Shown one piece after another: positions 2,344-20,000 of a stretch of 20,000 nt of DNA. A program made the translations under genes and the position numbers. The first letter of the stretch is position 1. The number at the start of each line of letters is the position of its first letter. A model generated the notes under the pieces. It saw only the letters and a program-made list of their open reading frames with translations, was not told the DNA's origin and ran no database searches. Source of the DNA: Vicugna vicugna (taxonomy: Eukaryota); NCBI GenBank assembly GCA_013265495.1, contig PNXW01001157.1, forward strand, positions 45,241-65,240, read 5' to 3'.

Positions 2344-2412
2344 AAAATGTGGAGGACAGCATGATGTAGAGGATGTACCTTTACACAGGTAAAGCTCAGG
2401 GTCAGAAGGAAG
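2344..2412 (+). pseudogene. KIF21A: KIF21A-like exon (~exon 25), disrupted
   Basis: tag|AA AAT GTG GAG GAC AGC (ENVEDS) ... GAG GAT GTA CCT TTA CAC ... TCA GGG TCA GAA GGA AG|gtaaga. It is 69 nt versus 61 expected from the recalled human peptide. TAG at 2367-2369 in the upstream frame and TAA at 2390-2392 in the downstream frame. Confidence 0.85.
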
Positions 2413-2775
2413 GTAAGAGAGTCTTCAGAAACTTAATAGATTTGACTTATTTCTTTAATATTTTAATATATTTAGCTGTTGCTTCAAACAATTACCTTAA
2501 GACAAATAATTTTGGAGTTTATGACTAAGTGAAGACACTAGAAACAGTAATAGGGAAACCAAACTGAGTAACGCTTAAAACTTCAAAACCTTTAAAAATA
2601 ATGGAATATTTAAAGAAGGAAAATGAATTATTTTAATTCGCTTTGATTTTGCATATTGTCATTCTGTGCTTTCCACAGGCATAGGAATTTTTTCCCCATA
2701 TTTATACTGAGAGAGGACATATAGTTTTCTATAGTAACTTCCCTTTTCATCTTGTGGTTAATTATTTGCTCATAG

Positions 2776-2830
2776 CTCACTGTCTTCAGACCTTATGAAG
2801 CTTTGTGGTGAAGTGAAACCTAAAAACAAG
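2776..2830 (+). pseudogene. KIF21A: KIF21A-like exon (~exon 26), intact 55 nt
   Basis: catag|C TCA CTG TCT TCA GAC CTT ATG AAG CTT TGT GGT GAA GTG AAA CCT AAA AAC AAG|gtaagg = [18 protein letters not shown]. Confidence 0.93.
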
Positions 2831-3469
2831 GTAAGGAGAACTGAAAACACCAGGTAACATTTTTACTGCTGTTCTTTATGATTTCTATTGAACACGGAGG
2901 GCGCAGGCTCGGCTCTTCACAGGCTCACAGGTGGGCATGCTTTCACCGAAGCTTTCACGTGTGAGAAAGTGTTTATTATACTCCCCTTAGGAAAAAAGAT
3001 ATATTGAACAGTTTCTCCTTTATGGGGCTTGTGACCTACTCTATTCTTGCACTTTTCCCACCAGATAAGATATGATTATGTAGAGCAATCTTTCAAAATA
3101 GTTAGATTGATAGGAGATTTTTGAAATTTAGCATTCTAATATGTTCTTCTGTGTTCCTTATTTATTTTGCTTAATTGTATCCAGAGGTGGTTTGAATAGG
3201 CCAACTCTTAATCATCATTTTCTTTTAAAAACTGAGGCTATAATGGATACTTGTGAAGTTTAAAAAATATGAGTAATATACTGTTAAATGTGTAAGATGC
3301 ACACGATATATTTCAGATTGCGTGTTGGCAGCTACTGGGTGAATTATAACCACCTTAAGATGTTTTTCGGATTTTTGCAGTGCTTGGTAAATATCTGTTG
3401 AATGAATGGGTGGAATCAGGACCTGAAAGATCAGTACTGTGCTAGTGGACAGGATGGACTTGAGGCCCA

Positions 3470-3745
3470 CAGTGGTCAGCCAGGTGATGCAAATGAATAT
3501 TTCAGTTGGATGTAAGACAATTAGCAGGGGTCAGCATGATTACCTGAAGAGGACATGCCCCATCTAAAACAAGTGCCACCACTCCACTATTGCTCATTTT
3601 TGCCATGATGGAATATGGGCCTTAGAGAAGCCTTAAATATGGATTTCAATGGAGAATTTCTTTATCTTTGAAATACTGGGCTTGCCAATCAAAAAACATC
3701 TGCAGGCTTCATGTGTGGTCCTTGAGCTACTGGCTTGGTAACGTG
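3470..3745. mobile_element. MER103-like hAT-Charlie DNA transposon remnant
   Basis: Motifs gatgtaagacaat, catgccccatctaaa, ttgccatg..gggcc..agagaagcc..ggattt and aaaaacatctgcaggc..gtggtcc match the recalled MER103C consensus. Confidence 0.6.
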
Positions 3746-4235
3746 TGGTTTGCGTCTTATTATTCTAAGTGACTAAGCAGAAGGTACCCAGACTCAAAGA
3801 AAACATTCTAGTGTAGTTTGGATCCAGTCTTAAGTGGGGGAGAAAATCTCTTAAGGTGACTTTGGGTCTCAGGCGCTGTGAAGGCCTCGCTATTCATGCC
3901 CTTGCAGGATGCCAGGGAGAGACGTGAAGGCGGGGCCTCAAGGCCGTCTCCTGAAAACACCACTGTGGTTAGGAAGCCCGGGGAAAGATGGTTCCACTGG
4001 CAGCGGAGAGGACTGGCAGGATGAAAGGCTGGCCTGCAGGGCTTGTTCTTCTTTCTTTTTCTTTTTGGCAGTGAAGGGTCATCATCTTTATCTGCATTGG
4101 ACACGATATTTAAAATATGAGTCTTGCCAGTTCTGAGAAGAGAAGTGCTCCCAAACCTGCATATACCCAGCACTCTCTTCTCCAAACACAAAGGAGCCCA
4201 CAGCATTTCTCAGAGGGATGCTCAGCTGACAGCGC

Positions 4236-4552
4236 TGAAGGCAGCCCCCGCCAGGGCCAGTGTGACAGTAATGAGAACCAGGAGACCCACAACGTCTTCT
4301 TCCTGTAGTTCTGGGCTCCGTGAGGTCTTGTTCAAGTGCTGCCTTCTAGCAAGCCTCGACCCTCCAGCCCGCCGCCCAGCTGGCCGCCCTCGCTGCTCCG
4401 CAGCTGCCGCTCGTCCTCGGGCTGCGCGGCGCTCGCGGGGGAGCCCGGCCGGCCGGGCCGGGAGGCTGCCAAGGGCGCGTGGCCGCTGGCGGAGGCGGGC
4501 CCGCAGGGCCCGGGGTGGGGGGATGCGGCGCTCGCTGCCCAGCCGGCTCCAC
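4236..4552 (-). pseudogene. TMEM163: Processed (retro)pseudogene of TMEM163 (zinc transporter-like protein), exon 1 and exon 2 coding part
   Basis: Minus strand gives (GTG)EPAG..GHAPLAA..QPEDERQLRSSEGGQLGGGLEGRGLLEGST*TRPHGAQNYRKKTLWVSWFS/ITVTLALAGAAF, matching recalled TMEM163 QLEEERQVRISESGQFSDGLEDRGLLESSTRLKPHEAQNYRKKALWVSWFSIIVTLALAVAAF. The exon1/exon2 junction (4355|4354) has no intron. Start codon is GTG, TGA at 4334-4332, 1-nt deletion near 4273. Confidence 0.9.
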
Positions 4553-4750
4553 TGCGCGGGGCGGCGGATCCCGGCAGCGAAGATGAGCCCCGTCAGAAGT
4601 GCGAGGCCCAGCGGCTGGGAGCGAGTGGAGGGACGGACCGAGGGCGGGCGGGCGCCCGGAGCGGAGGTGCGGGCTGCAGGGGGAAGGAGGGGGTTGGTGC
4701 GCGTCTGCAGGACTTACTTTCCGGAAGTTTTCTCGGGCTCTCCGCCACTC
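4350..4750. promoter_or_regulatory. CpG island-like segment (TMEM163 5' region carried by the retrocopy) with ETS and GC-box motifs
   Basis: Very GC- and CpG-rich (11 CpG in 4381-4440 alone) within AT-rich intron. CCGGAAGT at 4721-4728; overlapping GGGCGG at 4642-4651. Activity not demonstrated. Confidence 0.55.
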
Positions 4751-4785
4751 CTTTTGAACAGCAAAGATGCCTAAAAGGATCTCAA

Positions 4786-4925
4786 ATCATTTATTCTTCA
4801 CTCATTGAATAAACAAAATTGACTACGTATTTTAAATAGGTCTGTACCAGCACTATGTTAAATGCAGAGCATGCGAAGTTGAATACAGCAGGGTGTCTGC
4901 GCTCTAAAGGTTTATAATCTGGTAA
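4786..4925 (-). mobile_element. LINE-2 3' end fragment
   Basis: tcatttattcttcactcattgaataaaca..ctgtaccagcactatgttaaatgc..ctgcgctctaaaggtttataatctggt resembles the antisense L2 tail. Confidence 0.55.
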
Positions 4926-5334
4926 ACACCTTGATTATCTGTTAATACATTAGTGATAACAACCAACTGTAAGCATTAACAACAAGATAGTCCCTTGGTT
5001 TTCCAGGAGTATGGAAGGGAATGCTTATGGCGAACTTAGATTCTAGGGAAAATTAACCTTCTCCTGTCTCACCATGCTGCCAAAAGCTAGGATGGGCTGG
5101 CGCTGGCTATCCAGCAGGCAGATTAAACATCCAGTTAAGACATCAGGGGGCAGGGTCATGGAAATGGAGATACAAATATAAAAATTGATATTAAAATAAA
5201 ATTTACATTAAATAAATCATCTAAGCATGGGAAAAATCAAAATTTAGTTGAAAGTCCTTGCAATTATCTTTTGGTTTAATTTCTTTCTTTCTTTTTTTAA
5301 ATGAGACATCGAGGGAGCTGGCCATGAGTGTCAG

Positions 5335-5538
5335 GATAGCACAGTAATGTTAGAGGCAGATTGCCTAGTTTTGAATCTGACTTTGCCACTTACTGTGTGT
5401 CTTTGGACATTTAGCTTCTGTGTGCCTCAGTTTTCTCATTCGTGAATTGGGATGATGATAGTATATGCTAATGTAATAAAGTGTTTAGAACAATTTCTGG
5501 CATCCAATAAGCATAATCCAAATGTTGGCTATGATTAT
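5335..5538 (+). mobile_element. MIR SINE
   Basis: MIR core: ttgaatctgactttgccacttactgtgtg..ctgtgtgcctcagttttctcatt..aaagtgtttagaacaatttctggcat..aaatgttggctat. Confidence 0.8.
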
Positions 5539-5640
5539 GACCCCTGAAAGTCTTATCTGGCTGTAGCTCTGGCGTATCACTGTCTTACATGCTATGTTTG
5601 ACACACTTGCTAGGAAAAGACATGCTAAATATTTTTACCT

Positions 5641-5789
5641 TCAGACACTAATGCAGGAGATGCCTCCTTGCCTGGCCCTCTTACACCTGTTGTGGAAGGG
5701 CAAGAGATTGGAATGAATACTGAGACCAGCACTTCTAGGGAAAAAGAGCTCCCTCCCCTGTCTGGCCTCCCTTCTAAGGTAGGTAGCAT
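5641..5789 (+). pseudogene. KIF21A: KIF21A-like exon (~exon 27), 5'-truncated
   Basis: Translates to [49 protein letters not shown], ending AT|gtaagt. The expected N-terminal [20 protein letters not shown] part is absent. A usable acceptor tttttaccttcag ends at 5644. Confidence 0.9.
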
Positions 5790-6470
5790 GTAAGTCTGGC
5801 CCAGCTACACTAACTTCCTTTCTTTTGACTTTTTTTTAAAATATGCATGTTGCTAATTTCTTGCTTCTATTTTTTTTGATTATGTAAATAAGATCTTCAG
5901 TTTTCAAAGTAATTTCTGCTAGGTGTGGTGTCCCCTAATTTTTTGTATTCAGAATAATTTAAATGAGATGATTTTGTTGAAATTGCTTTGTCCTATTTCT
6001 AAGTTTTAGGGTCTTTCTTAAAGAGTATCATTTTTATTAAGGCTGAGATGTGAATTACAGACAAAATTTATTAAGAAACAGATGTAGGTTAAAGTGACAC
6101 CTATAAAGTCATTACATCAAACAGAACCTTGAAGACTCTTCAGTTTGCTCTAAATCATGGTACATCCTCATTCCAAGAGCCTGGGCAGGTGTGTAGACTT
6201 TTGCTGACACTGTTAAAGAAAAATGCAGATGTCGATTACCAGCTTAATACATTTTGAACTTTCCTAATTCTTTGTCTTGAAGACATTGCATGTCTGGATG
6301 TCTGGGATGAGTGTGTACACAAAGTAGTGTTATTGTGTTATTAAAGAGTTGAAGGAGGGAACATTTCACATCTATGATAATCTTAACAAGAAACATTCTA
6401 TTCAAAACAGATTTTATTTAGAAATTGTTCATAATTATCTTGAGAAGTAAGATTTTCCTACACAGGCCAG

Positions 6471-6490
6471 TGTGTGTGTGTGTGTGTGTG
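6471..6490. repeat. (TG)10 microsatellite
   Basis: Directly visible. Confidence 0.95.
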
Positions 6491-7606
6491 TTTGTTGTTA
6501 GTTGTATTAAAACTAGATCAGTCATTCACTGGTAAAGATGTTTAATGACTTTTTTTCAAACTAACTCTCACATATGATCTAGCAATTGATTTATTGGATG
6601 AACACATGACTGCACTGAGAAATAGTGCCAAAAAAGTGGCACACACTAGATGACTCTGCAGCTAATAAAATATAACAAACTCCCCACCCCTAGCTTGAAT
6701 ATCTCTTTCCCATAACTTTCTCCATCTTATGAAGGTATTTTCATTGTCTTCCATTCAGTAAGCCCATCTGCTACCTTTAGTTCTAAAATTAATTTTGATG
6801 GTGGCAGAACTTTCTCGCTGTGCTTGAGGTGGCCTGTGTGATTAACAATTGAATTTGCTGATACAGATTGCTAACCAGTATGGCTTATGGCTTCAGTGCT
6901 TTTTTGATAAGATAACAGTAGAAGAAATGCTTTTGGTGAAGATAGTGATACAGAACTGAGATCAGATTTTAGGAACTCCCAGGTGTTCAGCATTTAGTCT
7001 GTCAGATGAATAGAGACTTTTGGAACTTCAAGATTAAATCTATGACCTGGAATCCAGAATTCAGGTAATACCTTCTTTTTGCCTTTTTCTTTTAAATAAT
7101 GTTATCATTTGTGACAGGTTGTGGAAAATATCTTATACATACTGTCTCTTCACATGACTTATTTTCAAGTTTTCATCAATTAAGATGCTTGTGTAATTCT
7201 GTACATATTTAAGAGATGGTCATGTGCTGGTGCAATGACTCTTATAACCCATTATTGCAGGACTTTGATTGCATAAAATAAAATAATTTACCTAAGTAGG
7301 CCTTATGATTTAAGTGATGCAGAACTTCTAAAATGTAATTTCCTCTGGTTAGAAAAATCAGGCACATGAAGTTTAGTTACATTTAGTTCTCACTTTCAAG
7401 TAGGAATCACTGTAAGCCCATTCTGAGCATCCTGCTTTCTAATTCTTTAGTGTTTTTTTCCTTATTAGTATAACTAGCCAAGGACAGCAAAATTTCATTT
7501 CTTTCCAATTAAAGTTTATTACCACTATACACAAAAATCAGTCTTAAATTGTTAGTTACATAGCCATCATTCAAGAATATTTTTTAACCAAAATTTATAT
7601 AGCTAA

Positions 7607-8099
7607 TGTTGACTGAAATAAACATGCAGCCTAAAAGTTAAAAGTTATGTTTTATTTGTCGGGTGGGCTCGAGCCGGGATGACAGCCTCTCAGATCGCTC
7701 TGAGGGACTGCTTCCAAGAGGTAGGGGAGGAGCTAGGATATATAGAAGCTTTACAACAAAGACCAGGTAGTTGGAACAATAAAGGATTGCTTGTTATCTA
7801 AAGAGAATCAGGCATCTCAAGTTAAAGAATTTAGTGCTTTTCTATTTATGGGAGGAAGCAAACATTTGGGCTCACTGAATTCATTCCTTTGACAAGCACC
7901 TAGCTATCTAGGGCCAGTATCCTGTCCTTTCTTATTCTGAGTCTGCTTAAAGGGCACCATTGTGAGTGGCTGCAGGGGTGGGCTGCAGACCTGTCCCCAC
8001 TAGGGGGTGGCGGCAGCCGCTGATGACTTGGTTTCAGCATTCTATGTTTACTGATATGTTTGCAGTATTTTCATTCACATTGCAGTATTTTCGTTCACA
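7607..8099 (-). mobile_element. ERV1-class solo LTR (MER41-like, artiodactyl type)
   Basis: TG...CA termini flanked by a 4-bp target-site duplication CTAA (7603-7606 and 8100-8103). Minus-strand AATAAA near the 3' end (forward ttttatt ~7651-7657). GC-richer than flanks. Family name is from memory. Confidence 0.8.
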
Positions 8100-8591
8100 C
8101 TAACTAATACTTAAATACTAGTTAAGTAAAATATTTTTGTGCTCACCTGTAGTATTTTTTTCTGACTCTGTAATAATAATTAATTAAATTTTCTTGTTTC
8201 TCATATTCTGATATTCTAATATTTTTGTTCTTGCAAAATTGTAAAGGCTATTTTTCTTCAACTAAAGCAGTTTTAATCAAACTTAAGCACATTTAAAATT
8301 TAAAAATTCATGTTAGCCTTTTGGTCGTATAACATTGATGTTTATGTTCAAAGATAACAGGCTTATATATTTTTGATAAGATTGACAATTTAAAAATTAA
8401 ATATAAAGTTGTCAAGCTCCCATTAATTAAAAATAACTTGTGTAATATTTTCCTATCCCAGTTCTATCTTTTATTCCCTAGTAACCTTTTTCAAGTTCTA
8501 GTTAGTAATCTATTAAAAATTTAGGTTGAATTGCCAAAGTTATATGTATATATTTAAAATTAGATGACTACAGAATCTTTTTTTCTCTTAG

Positions 8592-8695
8592 TTCCAGACA
8601 GTCGTCTCTATCAGAAAAACCAACAGAGCCTCCCCCATAACAAGGAGAAGGGCATGTGAGAAAGCAGAAAACCCAAAGACCAAGGAACTAAGGCA
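8592..8695 (+). pseudogene. KIF21A: KIF21A-like exon (~exon 28), frameshifted, GC donor
   Basis: ttag|T TCC AGA CAG TCG TCT CTA TCA GAA AAA CCA ACA GAG CCT CCC CCA TAA (stop at 8638-8640). Homology continues one base shifted (ITRRRACEKAENPKTKELR). The phase-2 donor position reads ca|gccagt. Confidence 0.88.
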
Positions 8696-9752
8696 GCCAG
8701 TTGCTAATGCTTTTTTACCTGATAGATTGTATAAAATGTCAGCTGCACTGAGATGCTAAAGGACAGCAGTGGGATGATTTTCCATATTCAGGCTGGCTCT
8801 GGGATTTCAACTTAAGACAGTCAAATCAGCTGTTGGCTTGTGGTCTTCTGATTTTCTTGGCCACACACATACCTGTAAATAAAATCAAGCAACTGTTCCT
8901 GATCATGTACTCTGATTTATTTTTCAATTATTTGTGTATGTCATTGTAGAGCTAATATAGCTTTGAGGAGAGGTTTATTAAAACTGTAATTCAAATAGTC
9001 TTCTAGAAAACTTTGAAATTAACTTTGACTGTTATCTGATAAAACAGATATTGATTTCACCTCTTTAAATTGGTTGAAAAAAATCTAGTGTTAGAAGATG
9101 TGTGAGTTATGCTATTTTCTTGCTGTTCTCTCATATTTAAATGGATATTATCCTTAATTTTTTTTTTGTTGAAATCTTTTAAAAGCTATGTGTGTGTTTT
9201 CTGAGGGTTAACTTGTTTTGTGAGGCTTAGTCTGCCTAACAGTATATAATATAATCCGATGGTCCACTTACCTGGGCATTTGTAAATTGCAACACCACAA
9301 CATGCAGAAAGTTATAAATGGGTTAGAGCCACTGTACCTTTCTACCATGTGGCACACTCACCTTTCCCTCAGGTCACCTAACGAACTGCATATGGCAGGT
9401 AGATCCCTGACATGGTCTTGAGTGAGAGCATCAATGGCAATCTCCTTTCAAATATTGGCAAAGCTAAGTCTTCAATATAAAATAAATATAAAAAGAAGTC
9501 TTGGGGTATTTTCTATACCCAAGTGAATAACCTTATACCATCCCCCTACCCGTACCATCATGCACACTCTCTACTTTGACCACTGGTTTAGCTGCCTTGA
9601 ATATCATGGAAATTATTCTAATCATCCTTGCTTCCTGTATTTAAAGATGTAATTTACCTTTTTTTTTACTGAATCAAATATCTCAAGAATAATTAGGAGA
9701 TAAGGGATGGAGCAAATAAGTAATTTAAAAATAAATGAATTTATCAGTTGAA

Positions 9753-9812
9753 TAAGCAAATCCCTCTTAATCTCTCAGGGTCTGTTTCCTCATCTATAAA
9801 GTGAGCATCTTG
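9753..9812 (+). mobile_element. MIR core fragment
   Basis: cttaatctctcagggtctgtttcctcatctataaagtgag resembles the MIR core. Confidence 0.55.
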
Positions 9813-9939
9813 GTCTCAATTGTAAAATTGTATAATTTTAAATTTGCCTTGCTTTATTCATACCAAGTTTAGATTTCAGCAGACAGAACTTTTTCTTTAG
9901 TGCCATCTTGTGGCCAATGTAACACAATCCAATGGGAAA

Positions 9940-10135
9940 TTTTTTTTTCTTTACTTTTTTTATTGAGATGTGTCCATTTCCAGTGTAGAGCACAATTTTT
10001 CAGTTGTACATGAACATACATATATGCATTGTCACATTCTTTTTCACTGTGACCTACCACAAGATACATTTCCCTATGCTATGCAGCAGAATCTTGGTTA
10101 TCTATTCTACAGATGCCTGTCAGTATCTACAAATT
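9940..10135 (-). mobile_element. 5'-truncated LINE-1 3' end, antisense
   Basis: T-rich tail (9940-9961) followed by ttcagttgtaca..tatatgcatt..cacattcttttt..ttccctatgctatgcagcagaatcttggttatctattcta, typical of an artiodactyl L1 3' UTR in reverse. Confidence 0.7.
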
Positions 10136-10286
10136 TGAAAAAATTTTAATTAAATTGTTCAGAGTGCATTTTATCTTATGAGAAAGAAAGGAAAGAAAGA
10201 ATTCTTTAATGAGAACCTTTTTTTTAAAAAAGCATATTTCTTATAACATTTCTAACAAGTAAAAGCCAACAAAGCCGCCTACTTAA

Positions 10287-10433
<147 letters not shown>

Positions 10434-11212
10434 TAAGTTATTATGTAAAAGAGTCCCAACTATTGATTATAATATTCCTGAGCTTTTCAATACAATCTTG
10501 AGAGAACATTTAGCCCTCTCTCTGTGTGGGAGATGGAGTCTGACTTGTGAACTCGTGCTGTACTTTATGTGTTTTTCCAGTGGGGAATGAACCATATACA
10601 CAAAATTAGATGAATTTATTTTCCTACTGAACATTATTCCCTGCTGTAGATTTGCAATGCTCCACTTCAGCACTTGCCTTGCCTTTTCCTTTTGCAGGTC
10701 AATTAGAATTGAAATATCTTTGCGATCACTTGAAGTTGAAATTTCTTGGGATTCTTCACCTTCGTTGAGCCCATAAAAGCCTCTAATCCGGCTAGCCTGT
10801 ATTGAAGAGGCAAACTATTTTACCTTTGGTGGATATAACATCTTACAGAGACCGTGTCACATATGTGTAACATGTTACCATTTGGTTGTTCCACAAATCC
10901 ACCACAAAACTTGAGTCATTTTGTTCTTGGAAAAAAAGAGTACCATTATGGGTGGAGGGGGTAGAACTCAGGGTGGACTGTTGGGGAAGAAAATTTGGAG
11001 GGCTATGGAAAATATAATTTTCATCAAATTTGAAGTGAAAAAATATTCCCACATTGAGCCAGAATCTCTCTTGTAAGAATTTCATAGTAACAGTGTTGCC
11101 ATAAGGTATTTATTAACTCTGACTTGTCTGCTTTGATTTTGAATTATAACATTGTGGATGTATGTCCTTGATGTCCAGTCTCCCACACCAATTTGTTTTC
11201 TATGCTATGATT

Positions 11213-11258
11213 TTCATATATATATATGAATCGTTCATATATATATATATGAACGATT
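11213..11258. repeat. Adjacent perfect AT-core palindromes
   Basis: ttc(at)6gaa at 11213-11230 and aatcgttc(at)7gaacgatt at 11229-11258. Confidence 0.9.
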
Positions 11259-12551
11259 TTGAAATTTACAGAATACTGCCTGGTATGTTTAGATCATGCT
11301 AAATGGCTCTGTAGACTTAGAGAGATACAACATTATTTTGAAATAATCTTTAATCTACTTAATTTATGGGTAAAATTCTTGATTAGATTTTAATATAGTT
11401 TAATCAGTAGATGATATGTCCTTTAAAATGATCTAGTTAGGTGATGTTTTTAAATTTAAAAACAAATATTAAAAGATTCTTGAACATTGTTAAATCATAC
11501 CTCTCAGTTAATTGAGAAAAGAGTAGAACATTAGGAATGTCTTTAGGAAGTCCATTTTCACTAGTGATATGAAGAATTGCTAAATTTTGTCTACCTTGTA
11601 TTTACAGTAGTAACATTTTGTCAGTCTTTTGGTAATCGTGACAGTCTAATCATAGTTCCATGTTTTTTACTGAAATAGTTTATGAGCTGCCAATCATTTG
11701 ACTGCATTACCATCTCTATAAAATAAAACTTAGAATGACTTACTACCCCAAACCCTCACCTACCTTTTGAATCAATTTCTTTGGGCCCCTTTTTGAGACT
11801 AGCATATTTCACCTGCTAGAAGTTAGGTCCCACACATTGTTTCTGATGACGTGACATGCGAGCACCCACTCTGTTCTCATCCTTCCCAAGCCTACTGTAT
11901 GACACTACATGCTAAATATTCAGTATCATAATAACCAGCCTTACTGTCAGTCCTGGAGAACTGAGGGTCAGGCTGACAGGAATGGCTCAGCTATTTTTAA
12001 AATCCCACCAAAACCTCCCCGCTGTTACTGAGGGACTGGCTAGGCAGAAGGCCACCATGTTTTTGAGATGAGTTAAATCAAAGTTTATTAAATTTTGACT
12101 GATTCGCTCCCCACGCATTCATGTATTTGTGTAACTTTCATATGAGACTCTACAGTAATTATCAAGAGGAATGAAATTCATTAATGTTTAGTGAAGTGGG
12201 AAAAGTTTCCTGGTACTAGTCAGATTAAATAGCACCTTGAAGTGATGGACTTCAGTTACCTGACGGTGTTCCTCTTCAGGGCCTACATTTTAGAAAGCAA
12301 GGACAGATAGGTTCCATGAATCAGTAATAGACCCCCCCAAATCTTGGTAGAAAACATAAGAACAAAATATTTTAGCTAATTTAGGTGTCTATTGAACTTG
12401 CTGATATCCAGCTCAAAAAGGAAAGCAGGGCCCACTAAAGGAAATGTTTGCTGTGTTTCTATTATTCATACCAATGCATCAGCTCAGCCTCAGTGTCCGC
12501 CTGTTACCATCTGTAGTCTTTCTCCTCACAATTCTGACTCTTTCCTTGTAG

Positions 12552-12590
12552 GTCTGATGACAGTGACTCTTCTCTGTCGGAGGTACACGG
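12552..12590 (+). pseudogene. KIF21A: KIF21A-like cassette exon (~exon 30), 39 nt, donor lost
   Basis: ttccttgtag|G TCT GAT GAC AGT GAC TCT TCT CTG TCG GAG GTA CAC GG|ggactt = SDDSDSSLSEVH. The donor dinucleotide at 12591-12592 is GG rather than GT. Confidence 0.87.
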
Positions 12591-13246
12591 GGACTTTCTC
12601 TCTTTCCTACTTTATGGCCTTTCAGTGATGTTTTAAAATGCCTTCCTAGAAACTTTAAGCAAGTCTCATTTTTGTTGCATTCATAAATGATAAATGTCAG
12701 TGCACTAATATTTTTAACCATAAATTTTAATATATATTAAATATATTTTTATGATCATAACTCTCAAAGTAGTGGCAGATTTTTTTGTATAATAACATAA
12801 AAAATTGTGCTATTTGTTTTCTGTCTATAACCTAAAAGTTTTCTTTAAAAGAAATTAAGTTCTAAGAAAATTAATTTCCTCAATGAATATTGCCCCCTCA
12901 AAGTGTGGGAGATGAATAAGGTAGTTTTCGTGTTGGTTTATCGATCTTAAATAAGCAGTTTATGGCAGACTTTGTGATGAAAAAAAGATATGCAAAGGGA
13001 AAAATGATACTATGATACCTAAAATATAGAAAGAAATAGAAAGAAAAAGTTTTTAAAAAATAATAAATATTTTAAACTAGTAAATGCTATTTTAGAAATA
13101 ACAATGTTGCATTTTTTTCACATTATGGATTTTTTTGGACCCTTAATTTATTTTTCTTTCTATCATTTCCTCTTTCTACTAATCATTTTGTCTCCTTTCT
13201 CTTTGCACTTTTCCCCATGTTTTATGGCCATTTTCCTGATCATCAG

Positions 13247-13261
13247 TAGATCCTCCAGAAG
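13247..13261 (+). pseudogene. KIF21A: KIF21A-like microexon (~exon 31), 15 or 12 nt via NAGNAG acceptor
   Basis: Long pyrimidine tract, then cag|TAG|ATCCTCCAGAAG|gtaggc, encoding (S)RSSR(R). This is the peptide between SEVH and GIINP in recalled KIF21A. Confidence 0.85.
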
Positions 13262-14539
13262 GTAGGCAGGGGAAGGGAGAGGAAATTAATGTCATTCAAA
13301 GAATTCCAAGATTTTACTGGTTTTGCTTGGAACAAAAATAAGCATTATTTTTTCCTTCAGATTAGATATATTGAGTAAGTTTGCAATATTTAACCTTAAC
13401 TTAAACTATTTTAAAGTTGATTTACATATTTCAAAATGTGAATAGATTAATTTTACTAGAAAAGAAATACCATGGATGTATGTTTCCAATTTCTGTTTCT
13501 TTCTATTATCTTTGATATAAGGTAATCTCTATAAAATATTAACCCTAATATTCTGAATATATGAGAGTGTTTTTCAGTATCTAATGAATAAAATTCTCAA
13601 TTTACTGTTGAAATTGTTTTTCTTCAAAGGTCTGAAAAAATAAAAGACGTAAGAATGAAAAAGAGACATCCTCTAGGGCTGCGCCATACATTAAATCACT
13701 GGAGGCAAATATTTACTTTTGTAATATTACAACCTTTGACATGACAGAATTGTGTTGGATGTTATGTCATGAGGGGAACACTTAATAGACTCTTAGGATA
13801 AAGAGAGTAATCTGAATGAAGGCAATTTTTTGGAGACATAATATTATATAACTGAGGGTGCTGTTTAGTTTTTTCTCCCTTAGGATGACTTGAGTCATTA
13901 AATGCAGATCATGCAGCTCTTAGGCTGTTAACGTGAAGTTTTTTTCTTTATAATCAGCTTCTTAGATTATGCATACATACATACATATTCTGTTTTTGAA
14001 GTAACAGTAGCAGTTGACTGTGTATTAGATCATAGTTTTCAACATGTGAAGCAATAGTTACAATTTGATGGCTTCAGTTCATAGCTTTTAAACCCCACAT
14101 CAGTTAAGATTTTGAAATGGCAGATTCAGACTTTTGAGAAGGTTTTGCTCCCATTTCAGTTCTGGTTAAATTCTTAGATTACCAACAAGTTACTGAGCAT
14201 TAGTTTCAAAAACCTCAAATTGATGCATGTATGCAAATAATACTTTGGATTTTGTCATTACACGTCCATGTGATTACAGTTCCTGGTATTATTTCTAGTA
14301 ATGAGGAACTTCCTTCATTTTTTGAAATCATTATAACTAAACCCTAAAAATAAAGGATTTTTAAAAATCCTGAGCCTAAATTTACTTCCGTTAAATTTCT
14401 GTTCATTGGCCTTTCATCAGCCTTCTTGAGCCATATTAGAATTAATCCAGTACATCTTTTTATAGGTATCTGACAGATCTTTTAAATATTCAGCCATTTA
14501 ACTGTGCTTTTGTATGCTCTCTGTAATGAAAGCTCTCAT

Positions 14540-14760
14540 ATCATCTCAGAAGTTTTAGATTCATCTGTTCCTAATAAGATATAGTCTAGGATCTGCTTCC
14601 ACAGTTTTGGAAAATCTCCCATTTTTCAGAGTTCTTCTTAGAATGTGGCATCCGGAGCTCAACCTCACTCCAGATGTGGCCTCAGCAGAATATAGTAACT
14701 CTCTTGCTTTCTTCTGAAATATTTACCTCTATTGCACAAGTCATTGAAAATGTTGGTAGG
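14540..14760 (-). mobile_element. L3/CR1 LINE fragment
   Basis: ttcttagaatgtggcatccggagctcaacctcactccagatgtggcctcagcagaatatag resembles antisense L3/CR1 sequence. Boundaries approximate. Confidence 0.45.
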
Positions 14761-15779
14761 GGAATCAAAAATTGTTAAGCCACTGATCTCATATCAATAA
14801 ACAAGCTTCTTTAGCTTGTAAATTGAGTTAAGTCCCTTTCCTACTTGGGGCATTCTCTTCTCTCTTCAACTTAAATTTTATGTTTAAATTTTTTCCATTG
14901 AATATTTTAGTGCTAGGTATGTACTTAAATGACCTTTGTTTGTAATTTTTTCTAGGCAGTGCATTGCTTTAATATATCAATTTAATACACAGGCCATGTC
15001 TGTCTTTGTTTCTGAGGACAGATTGACTAGGCATTGAAGGCCTCTTTCCAGACTGGCAGGAACATGGACCCTTTAGGTGTGATTCCTCAACCACTGGTGG
15101 AACTACCTTCCTACAATAGGGTTTTACTTACTTCATCTGCAAGGATATCATTTGAAAAGCTTTTTGTATGGACCTTTTTGGAGTCAACATATGTTGTGAA
15201 TATGACATTCCCCTAATATGCTGCCTGTTAATTCTACAAAGAACTTCCCCATGAGATTAGTGAGCTCATGTTATCTCTTATAGATGAACATCTAAGTGTT
15301 TATAATTATGTAATGTTTTCCTCTGTGAGACTCAACAAGAGTTACCCATCTGTAATCTCTGAAATCCACTATGTTTCTCCTTTCTAGAAAACTGGGTCTA
15401 TGTGTTTTATCCCCTTTATTGATCCTTTTAGTGTCCCAACAATGATTTTGCCTCCACAATGGTGTATACTTTCAAAACCTTGTGACATAATGTTTCAGAA
15501 ACAGAAGTACTGGAACTCATTGAACAAGTCTTCATTATCAGTTCTAACTTATCTTGGGCTTATATTTCTTCTGAATTATCCCTGCCCCTTGCATCATGAA
15601 GGTTGTTCTCACTCATCAAGAAGAAGGAAACAGACAGCTTAGTTTCATGCCTGCACCTGCCCTCATATTATGCCACCTGTCTTAGATGATGGGCATATTT
15701 CAGCATAATTTTTCTTATGCTCTGAGCAAAGTTACATTCATCTTATATACTTATCATGTCTTAATTCACACTCATCTTT

Positions 15780-15915
15780 AGTCTTCCTCTTACATTTATT
15801 TCAGTTCAGATCCTGTCTTAAATTCCTTTAGGATAGGGACAGTGTTTTGATAAACTTTCTATTTCCATAGTTCATAGTCCAATGGCATAAAGCAGAAACT
15901 TCAGAAATATTAAAT
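15780..15915 (+). mobile_element. LINE-2 3' fragment
   Basis: ttcctttaggatagggacagtgttttg..atagtccaatggcataaagcagaaacttcagaaatatt resembles the L2 3' end. Confidence 0.45.
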
Positions 15916-16545
15916 TTATCAGAAAGCTCCCTAAAGAGCCTCACTGTTCTCTTAAAATTTTACTCTTAAAATTTTTTTCTTTTACACTTTTAAGAGTTTT
16001 TAAAGTTTTTGCTATTTTTGAGCCATTCTCCCTTTAGAATTTCTGTCTATGTAAATATTCATATATTTCTTCAAATTGGTTTGAAATTTGCTTTCGTAGT
16101 ATTTTAGGTGGTATGTGTTACGCTTTCTCCAGGATGTATTTTTGGACATAGAATTATATTCTAGCCTGATAGAGAGTCACATCTTCCAGTCAGCCATCAT
16201 TTATACTTTCTTACCTGTCAGAATTCACTATACCTGAACAGCTCCCAATATTACTTCATGAAATTTGAACAAGATGAAATTACTAATAAGAAAATCCGGA
16301 TGCAGCACTGGCTTTGCTCCTTGCAGAAGGCACCTGCTAACTGACACCTGATTAGTCGGTGCACGCCATCACTGCTTTTACTGTTTCACACTGTGTCCCT
16401 TTGCTTAAAAAATGAGACAAGGAGCAGTATGGATTTAATTACTATTACTTGGAAAGACTTCTTAAAGTCAGAGAAAAAAAATTAAAGTAGTTTCATGATA
16501 CAGCTACTGAAGTAAAGCTTTGTTTTTTTTTTTCTCCCAGCTCAG

Positions 16546-16679
16546 AGGCATAATCAACCCACTTCCAGCTTCAAAAGGAATTGGAATGCCCCACTTCGGT
16601 GTGTGCACGTAGCTGAAGGGCACACACAGCTGTGCTCTGTGTGAGGGCTACTGATGCTCTTCTCTTCACTGGATCAAAG
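16546..16679 (+). pseudogene. KIF21A: KIF21A-like exon (~exon 32, start of WD40 domain), frameshifted
   Basis: ctcag|A GGC ATA ATC AAC CCA CTT CCA GCT TCA AAA GGA ATT (GIINPLPASKGI), then PLRCVHVAEGHT and AVLCVRATDALLFTGS in shifted frames. It is 134 nt versus 137 expected; the read-in frame hits TAG at 16610-16612; donor gtactg. Confidence 0.9.
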
Positions 16680-17028
16680 GTACTGGTTGTTGTGTCATGT
16701 GGGTACATAACAGATCTTTTAAAAAATGATTACGTTGAGCTGGTTTTGAAAAAAATGTCAAACTGCTTAAGATTCATAGGAATCTGAGAGATAATCTGGT
16801 TCAATCCCTGAATTATATAAAATACAAAATCACTGCATGGTTGGTAAGAAAGTAAAACCTCTTTTGATGCACTGTGAGTAGAATGGCACGGGGATACATC
16901 TCTCTATGGTAATTGAGCATCTAATGCATGCAAAGCCCTGAGCTTAGTAATGCAGGCTGCGTAAAAATCTATGAAAGGCCATTGCAGAATACAGTGTGAC
17001 AGAGAGAGTAAGGTGGGTAGCGGCCACC

Positions 17029-17258
17029 ATTTCTTGAGCAGTCCCTGTATGTCAGAGGCTGTACTGGACAGTATGCAAATTACATCTCACTTATTTCTCA
17101 CAACAACCCCAATGACGTACATATTGCATCCTCATTTTACAGATGAAAAAATTGAAAATTTAAGAAGTTAAATAATTTCCCCAGCTACACTTAGAAAGTG
17201 GAGGAGCCAGGATTGGAAACCTAGGTCTACTCGTCTCCAAACCTGCACTCTTAACCCC
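17029..17258 (-). mobile_element. MIR SINE, antisense, near full length
   Basis: ttgagca..tatgtcagaggc..tctcacaacaacccc..cctcattttacagatgaaaaaattga..gttaaataatttcccc..gtggaggagccaggattggaaacctaggtct..ctcttaacc. Confidence 0.85.
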
Positions 17259-17494
17259 TTTGGTAAAATGGCAGGCAACTAAAAAAATCAACTATAAATG
17301 ATTGGAAAATTTATAGACTAGGTTTTGGGGTTTCAGAAAAGGGAGAGATTATGCCAAGCTGTAAAAAATAAGGAAAGCTTTGATAAGGAGGTGTTTAAGA
17401 TGAGTCTTACAGGATTGTTGCTATTGACAGGTAAGGACAGGCAACTAAGGTCAGAGAAGAGCAGAAGCAGAGACGTGGAGGCAGATGTGGATTT

Positions 17495-17626
17495 GGGGGG
17501 AGGGGGGTTGTATAGCGCAAGTGGTAGAGCGCGTGCTCAACATACACGATGTCCTGGGTCCAACCTCCAGTACTTCTCCTAAGCAGAAATAAATGAATAA
17601 ATCTAATCCTTAAAAAAAAAAAAAAA
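17495..17626 (+). mobile_element. tRNA-derived SINE resembling camelid Vic-1
   Basis: G-rich head, Pol III A box (tagcgcaagtgg), degenerate B box (gggtccaacc), ccagtact..aaataaat body and A15 tail (17612-17626). Confidence 0.8.
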
Positions 17627-18383
17627 GGAATTTGGAAATTAAATCCTATTGAGTTGAAATGTAGAATATACATGACAATGGGCAATGAGACTAGGAAGGT
17701 GAGAAGGAAGCATGTATAAGAATTTGGGGAGCTAGTTAAAGATTTTTAGCATTTAGGGATGTTCCAAGACTCAGTTTAATCAGAAAAATTTTTGCTCATT
17801 TTCTATGAGGGAAATAAAAGAGTTTAGCTTATGCGTTGTTAATAATTGCAAGCAATTCCCCTATTAAAAAAAATTTACTCTACAAAAACATAATTTTCTA
17901 ATGATTCAAGTTAAATTGATTTCTCCAGTATAATTACACATTCAGCATGTCAGAAAAACAAAATAAAATAGTTTTGTGATTATGTTTTTTGAGTCAAAGA
18001 TAAAATCCATCCATAAGTGACTCCTGGAAAGAAACGTATGTGTATTTATGAGTATGGAGTGTTGTCAGGAGGTAAGAGCAGATTTTGAAATGGCTGATTT
18101 AGGATGGCTGTTTAAAATTCAGGGGCAATTTGGAGCAAGACTCTTTTCACATATCTATTTCAAAATTTTGTGTAATTACTTTTTTAATACCGTGTGATGC
18201 ATCCCTAGCTTTCATCCAATCCTTTACACCTGCTTTGCCCTTGAACCTGTGGCAAGTTAGAAGTTAGGAGTTAGGATGCCTGTTTCAGGTTAATGGAATA
18301 ATTACTGTTTCCTTATCTATTTTTTTCTCATAAAAGTCTAATTTAGTTCATATTGACAGTATTGCCTCTTTTTTTTGTTTTAG

Positions 18384-18564
18384 ATTGTACTTTTAAAGTA
18401 TGGAATCTGGTGACTGGGCAGGAGATAATATCACTGAGGGGTCATCCCATCAATGTCATATCTGTAAAATACTATAATTATACAAGTTTGGCCTTCACAG
18501 CATCAGCATCTTATATTAAGTTGTGGGATATCAGAGACTCAGCAAAGTGCATTCAAGTGCTAAT
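18384..18564 (+). pseudogene. KIF21A: KIF21A-like WD40 exon (~exon 33), open but diverged, 181 nt
   Basis: ttttag|AT TGT ACT TTT AAA GTA TGG ... CTA AT|gtaagt = [60 protein letters not shown]; 13 of 60 residues differ from the recalled human sequence. Overlaps ORF 18353..18568. Confidence 0.93.
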
Positions 18565-19630
18565 GTAAGTAACTTAAAGAGAAGCAGCATAAGGGGCAAA
18601 TAGCCCTTGTTTATAAATATGAGAAAAGATAGGTCTGTGAATGCATTTTTGTTTATTTATACCTGTCTACTTGCAAGTAACATTACAGTGTTTACAGTAA
18701 GAATGCCAATAAAGTAAGGTTTAAAAACCTTTTGAGAAAATAATATATAAAAGCTCAATATTAAACAGGAAGGGAGAAGTCCTATTTGATCTGTGACTAA
18801 GTACACATTTCATATTTCCTCCCTAACCAAAGGAATTAAATTTTCATAGTATTTATTACTTACATAGTTACATGCTTCAAATGAATACCACTCCTTGGAA
18901 AATGGCTCAAATCACCATAGTAGATGGTGAAGAAGTACTTTCAACACTTAATTAGCATGTATTGAGTAACTGAGAGGGTTTTTTTGTTGTTTTGTTTTGT
19001 TTCTTTAGGACTTAACACTGCCTTGGGGTTAGTCCCTATTTTGTAACTTTAGGTTGTGTAGGGTGATTGGAAGATGAGTTTGTTTTCTGTGTTTCTTATC
19101 ATATATGTCTTTAAAATGTAGAGCAGATGATTCTTTTTGTTGTAAGATTGATGAACTGTTCTACATAATTAAAATTAAGGTGAACTCTGTTGGTAGTAAG
19201 AGCAGGGAGCATAGGAGTGGTTAGTTTTTACAAATTTGTAGAGTGGGGTTATTAACATTAAATTCTATTTTGCATTTTGAGAATTACTAATTATTTGCTG
19301 TATTGAATACAAGTCTCTTGAGGGAAATTTTGTAGAAAAAGAACACTGTTATCTTATGTTAGAAATTTACCCATCCAGTTGACTCAGTAAAATCTAATTT
19401 GAAAAGATTGATTATAACTTGATATTTTAGAAGTTTACTGAGAAAATGTTCCCAAATTTAAAAATACATTTGCTGCTTAGAACTTGGCTGAGGAAATAGA
19501 AGTAAGTTATGGTTAAGCAATAGTAACTAATCCATATATGATTGGGTTAAAGTAAACAAAAACTGAAAATAATTTTAAAATTCCTCAGTGTCTTTAACTG
19601 AAAAGGGCAAATCTTACATATGAAAGGAAT

Positions 19631-19987
19631 ATCAGTAGGCTCGCCCCTCAGGGGGCTTCTGGAAACTGCAGAAGAATGAATTACCTTTGTGGCACTGCAT
19701 CACTTGTTGAGTTTTTAAATCATTGTCATCTAATCTTTTCTGAATCATACTGAAGTCATCCTTAACTCAGGACTCAGAATTCCTAGTGTTTAGGAGACTT
19801 GCAAATTAAATCAGTAGGCTCGCCCCTCAGGGGGCTTCTGGAAACTGCAGAAGAATGAATTACCTTTGTGGCACTGCATCACTTGTTGAGTTTTTAAATC
19901 ATTGTCATCTAATCTTTTCTGAATCATACTGAAGTCATCCTTAACTCAGGACTCAGAATTCCTAGTGTTTAAGAGACTTGCAAATTA
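19631..19987. repeat. 179-bp-period tandem duplication, 2 copies
   Basis: atcagtaggctcgcccctcaggggg...gacttgcaaatta starts at 19631 and 19810; I see one mismatch (tttaggagac versus tttaagagac). Confidence 0.95.
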
Positions 19988-20000
19988 GGAGTTTAAAGCC

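Follow-up and report, generated by a model that had tools for sequence, protein, structure and literature searches.

A TMEM163 retrocopy within duplicated KIF21A segments of the vicugna genome probably records a message that ended in intron 2

The window, a stretch of 20,000 nucleotides of the Vicugna vicugna assembly GCA_013265495.1 (contig PNXW01001157.1, positions 45,241 to 65,240, forward strand), contains a partial duplicate of KIF21A that is interrupted by a reverse-transcribed copy of TMEM163. The identity of the host was apparent from a WD40 exon at 18383-18565, which matched the KIF21A entry 7klj with an E value of 3.6e-32 (ranking behind two designed propellers only), and from the exons on contig C10921, the source locus of the duplicates, which were KIF21A-like; an Atlas look-up of the WD40 region returned generic WD40 only. 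The insertion lies antisense between what appear, by motif search, to be KIF21A-like exon remnants near 2780-2830 and 5630-5790. Partial KIF21A duplicates form a family that comprises window positions 2344-20000 and contigs C9881, C4396, C4779, C1036, C2129, C10023, C5729, C6442, and C3947, and the WD40-exon region alone matched about ten contigs. A segment of about 2.1 kb at 325-2453 was present in the window and at the source locus and missing from C9881, C6442, and C3947, a distribution by which its lack is a shared deletion that groups these three loci. At about 17500-17630, the window also holds a short interspersed repeat with many genome matches.

Comparison with the parent gene confirmed that window positions 4704-4067, on the minus strand, constitute a processed pseudogene of TMEM163, which consists of exon 1, exon 2, and then a terminal exon derived from intron 2. 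The copied exon 1 (4355-4704, minus strand; 5′ untranslated region and first 65 codons) gave a 77% gapped BLAST match to G000:C8191:1974334-1974706 and is CpG-island-like by its CpG counts, with the start codon now reading GTG at 4552-4550. It is joined to exon 2 (4236-4354, minus strand; 89% match to the parent) without the 5.6-kb intron 1, whose removal was precise; of intron 2, the retrocopy likewise lacks the first 2,731 bases. We found TMEM163 exon homology to end at 4236, the same position as in the original prediction, with no exon-3 peptide after it. From there, the alternative terminal exon (4067-4235, minus strand) matched the parent contig at 85% over 169 bases (E 1e-45; G000:C8191:1983204 to about 1983377), the BLAST alignment spanning window positions 4227-4061. 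The exon contains a remnant of a poly(A) signal (4087-4092, minus strand), which reads GATAAA in the window copy and AATAAA in the parent, C3947, and C9794, and it is followed by a decayed poly(A) tail (4051-4066, minus strand) that was not templated by the parent.

The retrocopy is bounded by a target-site duplication, a 14- to 18-base A-rich direct repeat whose 5′ copy (4705-4720, minus strand) is decayed in the window and whose 3′ copy (4034-4050, minus strand) has a border with the A-tail that is blurred by a few bases. On C10921, we observed the same flanks with the duplicated word present once and no insertion, i.e., the empty site, and an A/G-rich tail remnant was present in all five retrocopy loci, with none at this place in the parent. 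The duplication and the empty site together placed the 3′ end of the insertion, initially considered impossible to fix, near 4034. The LINE-1 endonuclease nicks DNA at the consensus TTTT/AA. A T-tract is present at the insertion site; the sequence beyond the nick departs from this consensus, and the border is blurred.

Beyond the tail, positions 3750-4033 (plus strand) belong to an intron of the duplicated KIF21A segment and lie outside the retrocopy, because they align to the KIF21A source locus (3750-4002 matched C10921 at 87% over 254 bases) and because window positions 3000-4033 had no match in the 20 kb of parental sequence compared. Accordingly, of the 3750-4236 span originally assigned to the retrocopy, 4235-4067 is indeed derived from TMEM163, whereas 3750-4033 is host intron. 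A KIF21A origin for the whole of 3750-4235, which had been named as the alternative, thus applies only beyond the A-tail and fails for the TMEM163-derived part.

Four loci (C586, which holds the window, C3947, C6442, and C9881) carry the insertion in full and with identical borders, and its 3′ part was found at the contig end of C9794; C1036 and C2129 stop short of the insertion site, and C6005 matched the flank alone. This is a single insertion that was multiplied to five loci by segmental duplication. All four full copies share a one-base deletion in exon 2 and hence a frameshift, and the ATG is gone in three of the four, so that by their reading frames the retrocopies are dead as genes. Among the copies, the host flanks differed by 2-10%, and compared to the empty locus, the difference was 10-17%. 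Relative to the parent, exon 2 of the copies diverged by 9-11%, exon 1 by 14-18%, and the terminal exon by 12-23% (rough at the ends). At 1-2 per 10^9 per site and year, taken as the neutral rate, this divergence would correspond to an insertion age of some tens of millions of years, which probably predates the camel/llama split.

Genome search placed the parent TMEM163 on contig C8191, with exon 1 at 1974334-1974706, exon 2 at about 1980353-1980472, and exon 3 beginning at G000:C8191:2099471, which yields an intron 2 of about 119 kb. A query over exons 3-4 matched one place in the genome, i.e., the parent, and over 65 residues, the protein sequence of the parental exon 1 had one difference from alpaca TMEM163 and three from that of Camelus. 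When window positions 3000-4235 served as the query, 13 genome matches were obtained, one of which lay in sense orientation on the parent contig, 2.7 kb past exon 2. The anticipated alternative exon was thus recovered where it had been expected, within intron 2 and preceded by a pyrimidine tract and an AG. It starts 2,731 bases into the intron, behind the acceptor CGTAG, in a context where 15 of 20 bases are pyrimidines and no AG occurs over 46 bases. Among 305 YAG sites in 9.5 kb of the intron, 29 were as pyrimidine-rich, 21 had as long an AG-free zone, and 6, this site included, combined both, which makes the acceptor good, not exceptional. At the other end, AATAAA stands 20 bases before the start of the tail, and the parental sequence downstream is GU/U-rich and not A-rich; the same 9.5 kb contains 10 AATAAA or ATTAAA words. 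An 801-base parental query (exon and flanks) matched the parent and the five copies, each copy only within query positions 307-485, and the intronic flanks occurred in no copy. Another AG stands 14 bases inside the exon and was discarded as the acceptor, given that the sequence ahead of it is present in the copies. No support emerged for the exon having come from a repeat: a search that skips very common words gave six matches in the genome.

The recorded message comprises exons of 372, 120, and 174 bases, and from the parent sequence its predicted product is a protein of 109 amino acids ending in A-A-F-N-A-D-F-stop, the stop falling four codons into the terminal exon; this agrees with the length of about 110 residues and the single retained helix in the original prediction. 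The tail S-A-V-S followed by TGA (4224-4222), which had been read from the window, does exist in that frame but results from a 4-base deletion in the window copy, whereas two of the other full-length copies retain S-A-D-F-stop. TMEM163 binds AP-3 and BLOC-1 through a dileucine motif (PMC13195334), and its D124/D128 zinc site is located in helix 2 (PMC9031525). The predicted product would keep the sorting motif and one helix and lose the zinc site, and presumably it cannot transport zinc. As an aside, the alpaca reference protein (P0256) has G for D at residue 64, in the acidic dileucine sorting motif, where the vicugna parent keeps D.

We consider it very likely that the insertion derives from a TMEM163 message that was polyadenylated within an intron, and that it is a dead retrocopy of the LINE-1 type. 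A TMEM163 transcript would have been spliced from exon 1 to exon 2 and on to a terminal exon of 174 bases, which begins 2,731 bases inside intron 2 (119 kb), and would have been cleaved and polyadenylated 20 bases past AATAAA. The LINE-1 machinery would then have copied this message of ~670 bases in an ancestral camelid, either in a germ cell or in an early embryo, with the copy landing antisense in the intron of a partial KIF21A duplicate, after which segmental duplication would have multiplied it. For inheritance, a single RNA of this kind in either setting is sufficient, so that the isoform need not be germline-specific. At the parent, the likeliest role of the exon would be that of a minor early-exit message, sparing the 119-kb intron and lowering full-length output.

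The joint between exon 2 and the terminal exon needs closer scrutiny, as the first exon base is A in today's parent and G in the copies, which consequently show TTCA-GTG, and a splicing origin would need one A/G change at this base. The intron itself opens with the same GTG that the copies show. The window copy indeed lacks a GT after exon 2, as was claimed, and reads GC; the other three full-length copies read GT. Such a donor-like GTG, together with the TG on both sides, could reflect a 2-base microhomology that helped a 2.7-kb deletion, or a template jump of the reverse transcriptase, in the copy of an intron-retaining RNA. We regard this as highly improbable: Both breakpoints would have to fall within three bases of the true donor and of one of the 6 best acceptors among 305, and such a chance deletion is far less likely than a single transition, which suffices at an overall divergence of 9-20%. 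Another reading concerns what the exon mainly does at the parent, where the donor-like sites CAG/GTAATC and CAG/GTATGC stand 13 and 21 bases beyond the cleavage site (L022:3389-3405, parent C8191). With these donors and with a stop four codons into the exon, it may serve both as a terminal exon and as an internal poison cassette. That it is mainly the latter, a stop-bearing cassette that is spliced to exon 3 and degraded, while the retrocopied RNA was a less frequent side product cleaved shortly upstream of the donor, appears rather doubtful to us, given that the sole recorded molecule, the retrocopy, ends at the canonical poly(A) site.

The intronically polyadenylated message could also be the product of a conserved and regulated alternative last exon across placental mammals, a reading that adds to the preferred explanation and does not exclude it. 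The single-helix protein of ~110 residues, with its AP-3/BLOC-1 signal, would then compete with or tune full-length TMEM163. The acceptor, the stop, and the AATAAA are all still in the parent, and the human RefSeq model of isoform X3 (XP_016860551.1) likewise consists of exons 1-2 and a private terminal exon that yields a truncated product, although its tail, with 54 amino acids, is unrelated to the camelid one. Of the 303 TMEM163 proteins compared, 194 extend through the whole of exon 2, and these comprised 122 that continue canonically, 50 reading into the intron, and 22 with other tails. No camelid protein with the present tail was found among these 194, i.e., among the matches listed, with the Bactrian camel models X1 and X5 outside the set. 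After exon 2, the hamster protein ERE73884.1 ends in N-A-L-L-P-D-F-stop, and in simulations a random tail covered N-A-D-F-stop by prefix and suffix 83 times in 3,000,000, or roughly 1 in 1,600 over 22 tails, for a pattern that was picked afterwards. We treat this tail as a hint of deep conservation and a lead only: The match was defined post hoc, needs a 3-codon gap, and may be the end of a gene prediction, while the sister model ERE73885.1 ends otherwise, as do the other 21 tails. The hamster tail RDASFQS, vaguely similar, was set aside, as short tails resemble each other easily. When metagenome contigs were searched for rodent DNA of exon 2/intron 2, none of the 590 pattern matches was confirmed, and a terminal exon diverged by 12-23%, against 9-11% for exon 2, gives no sign of strong constraint. 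Overall, broad conservation of the exon seems unlikely. Other sequences inserted after exon 2, or ending there, were observed in the fur seal (P0113), in Apodemus (P0156), and in a bovid-like Logan protein (P0183), and the Bactrian camel RefSeq models X2 and X6 (P0101 and P0164) carry a different cassette between exons 2 and 3; this variety points to many private exons arising from intron 2.

Signals of the exon in present-day sequencing data were compatible with several origins. Using the parental exon with short flanks (241 bases, 21 words) as a query, 24 sequencing runs were listed. The five on record as RNA, from two studies labelled reproductive system, held 0.76 of the sampled words; nine runs guessed to be RNA held 0.71-0.76, six of unknown kind 0.95-1.00, and four were unindexed. 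These shares describe the word content of the runs, and the value of 0.76 may stem from differences between species, from pre-mRNA, or from carried-over DNA as easily as from an exon-limited contig. It fits an exon-only contig, for which about 0.69 would be expected, but we set it aside as proof, as differences between species would lead to the same value.

The copied exon-1 island has decayed slowly. In the four full copies, CpG transitions affected 5 of 100, 8 of 106, 12 of 105, and 8 of 104 sites (5-11%), compared to 38-41% in the host flank (31 of 78 for the window), the latter values being inflated by the use of a living locus as reference; the alignment is gappy. This difference suggests that the copied island stayed unmethylated in the germ line, and possibly it is promoter-like and unmethylated inside the KIF21A duplicates. 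A published example of such an arrangement is PPP1R26P1, a retrocopy carrying a CpG island in intron 2 of RB1 (PMC3839921). In both cases, a CpG island entered the intron of another gene with a retrocopy. Here, that gene is a broken KIF21A duplicate, and what was observed of the island is slow CpG decay. A farther-reaching scenario combines these elements: an alternative last exon whose conservation spans rodents and camelids and which is in use in reproductive tissue, a product of ~110 residues that brakes the zinc loading of vesicles, and a CpG island that is perhaps still an unmethylated promoter in all KIF21A duplicates. We deem this whole combination quite unlikely.

Intronic polyadenylation and alternative last exons are established sources of truncated isoforms, and that retrocopies can record unannotated splice forms is already known: Shemesh et al. 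(2006) reportedly described processed pseudogenes as such records. As in those cases, the present retrocopy preserves an exon joint and a 3′ end missing from the usual gene model; it differs in being a single camelid case, in deriving from a product of intronic polyadenylation, and in having been multiplied by segmental duplication. Equid genomes offer a parallel in LCORL, whose segmentally duplicated retrocopies (17-35 copies) supply most of the transcripts (PMC10249811). In both, segmental duplication in one family of mammals amplified a single ancient retro-insertion; here, 5 loci were found, with all four full copies frameshifted.

TMEM163 is a zinc transporter linked to hypomyelinating leukodystrophy (PMC9031525) and to platelet granule formation (PMC13195334). 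The retrocopy locates to the base an exon and a poly(A) site of this gene that are absent from the camelid proteins and the literature searched, in which no account of the short isoform was found; poly(A)-site atlases may already list the site. If the exon is not conserved, the locus would hold a retrocopy of the common type, made from a leaky message that ended early; if it is conserved, a truncated form that carries the sorting signal would constitute a new way to regulate a zinc transporter.
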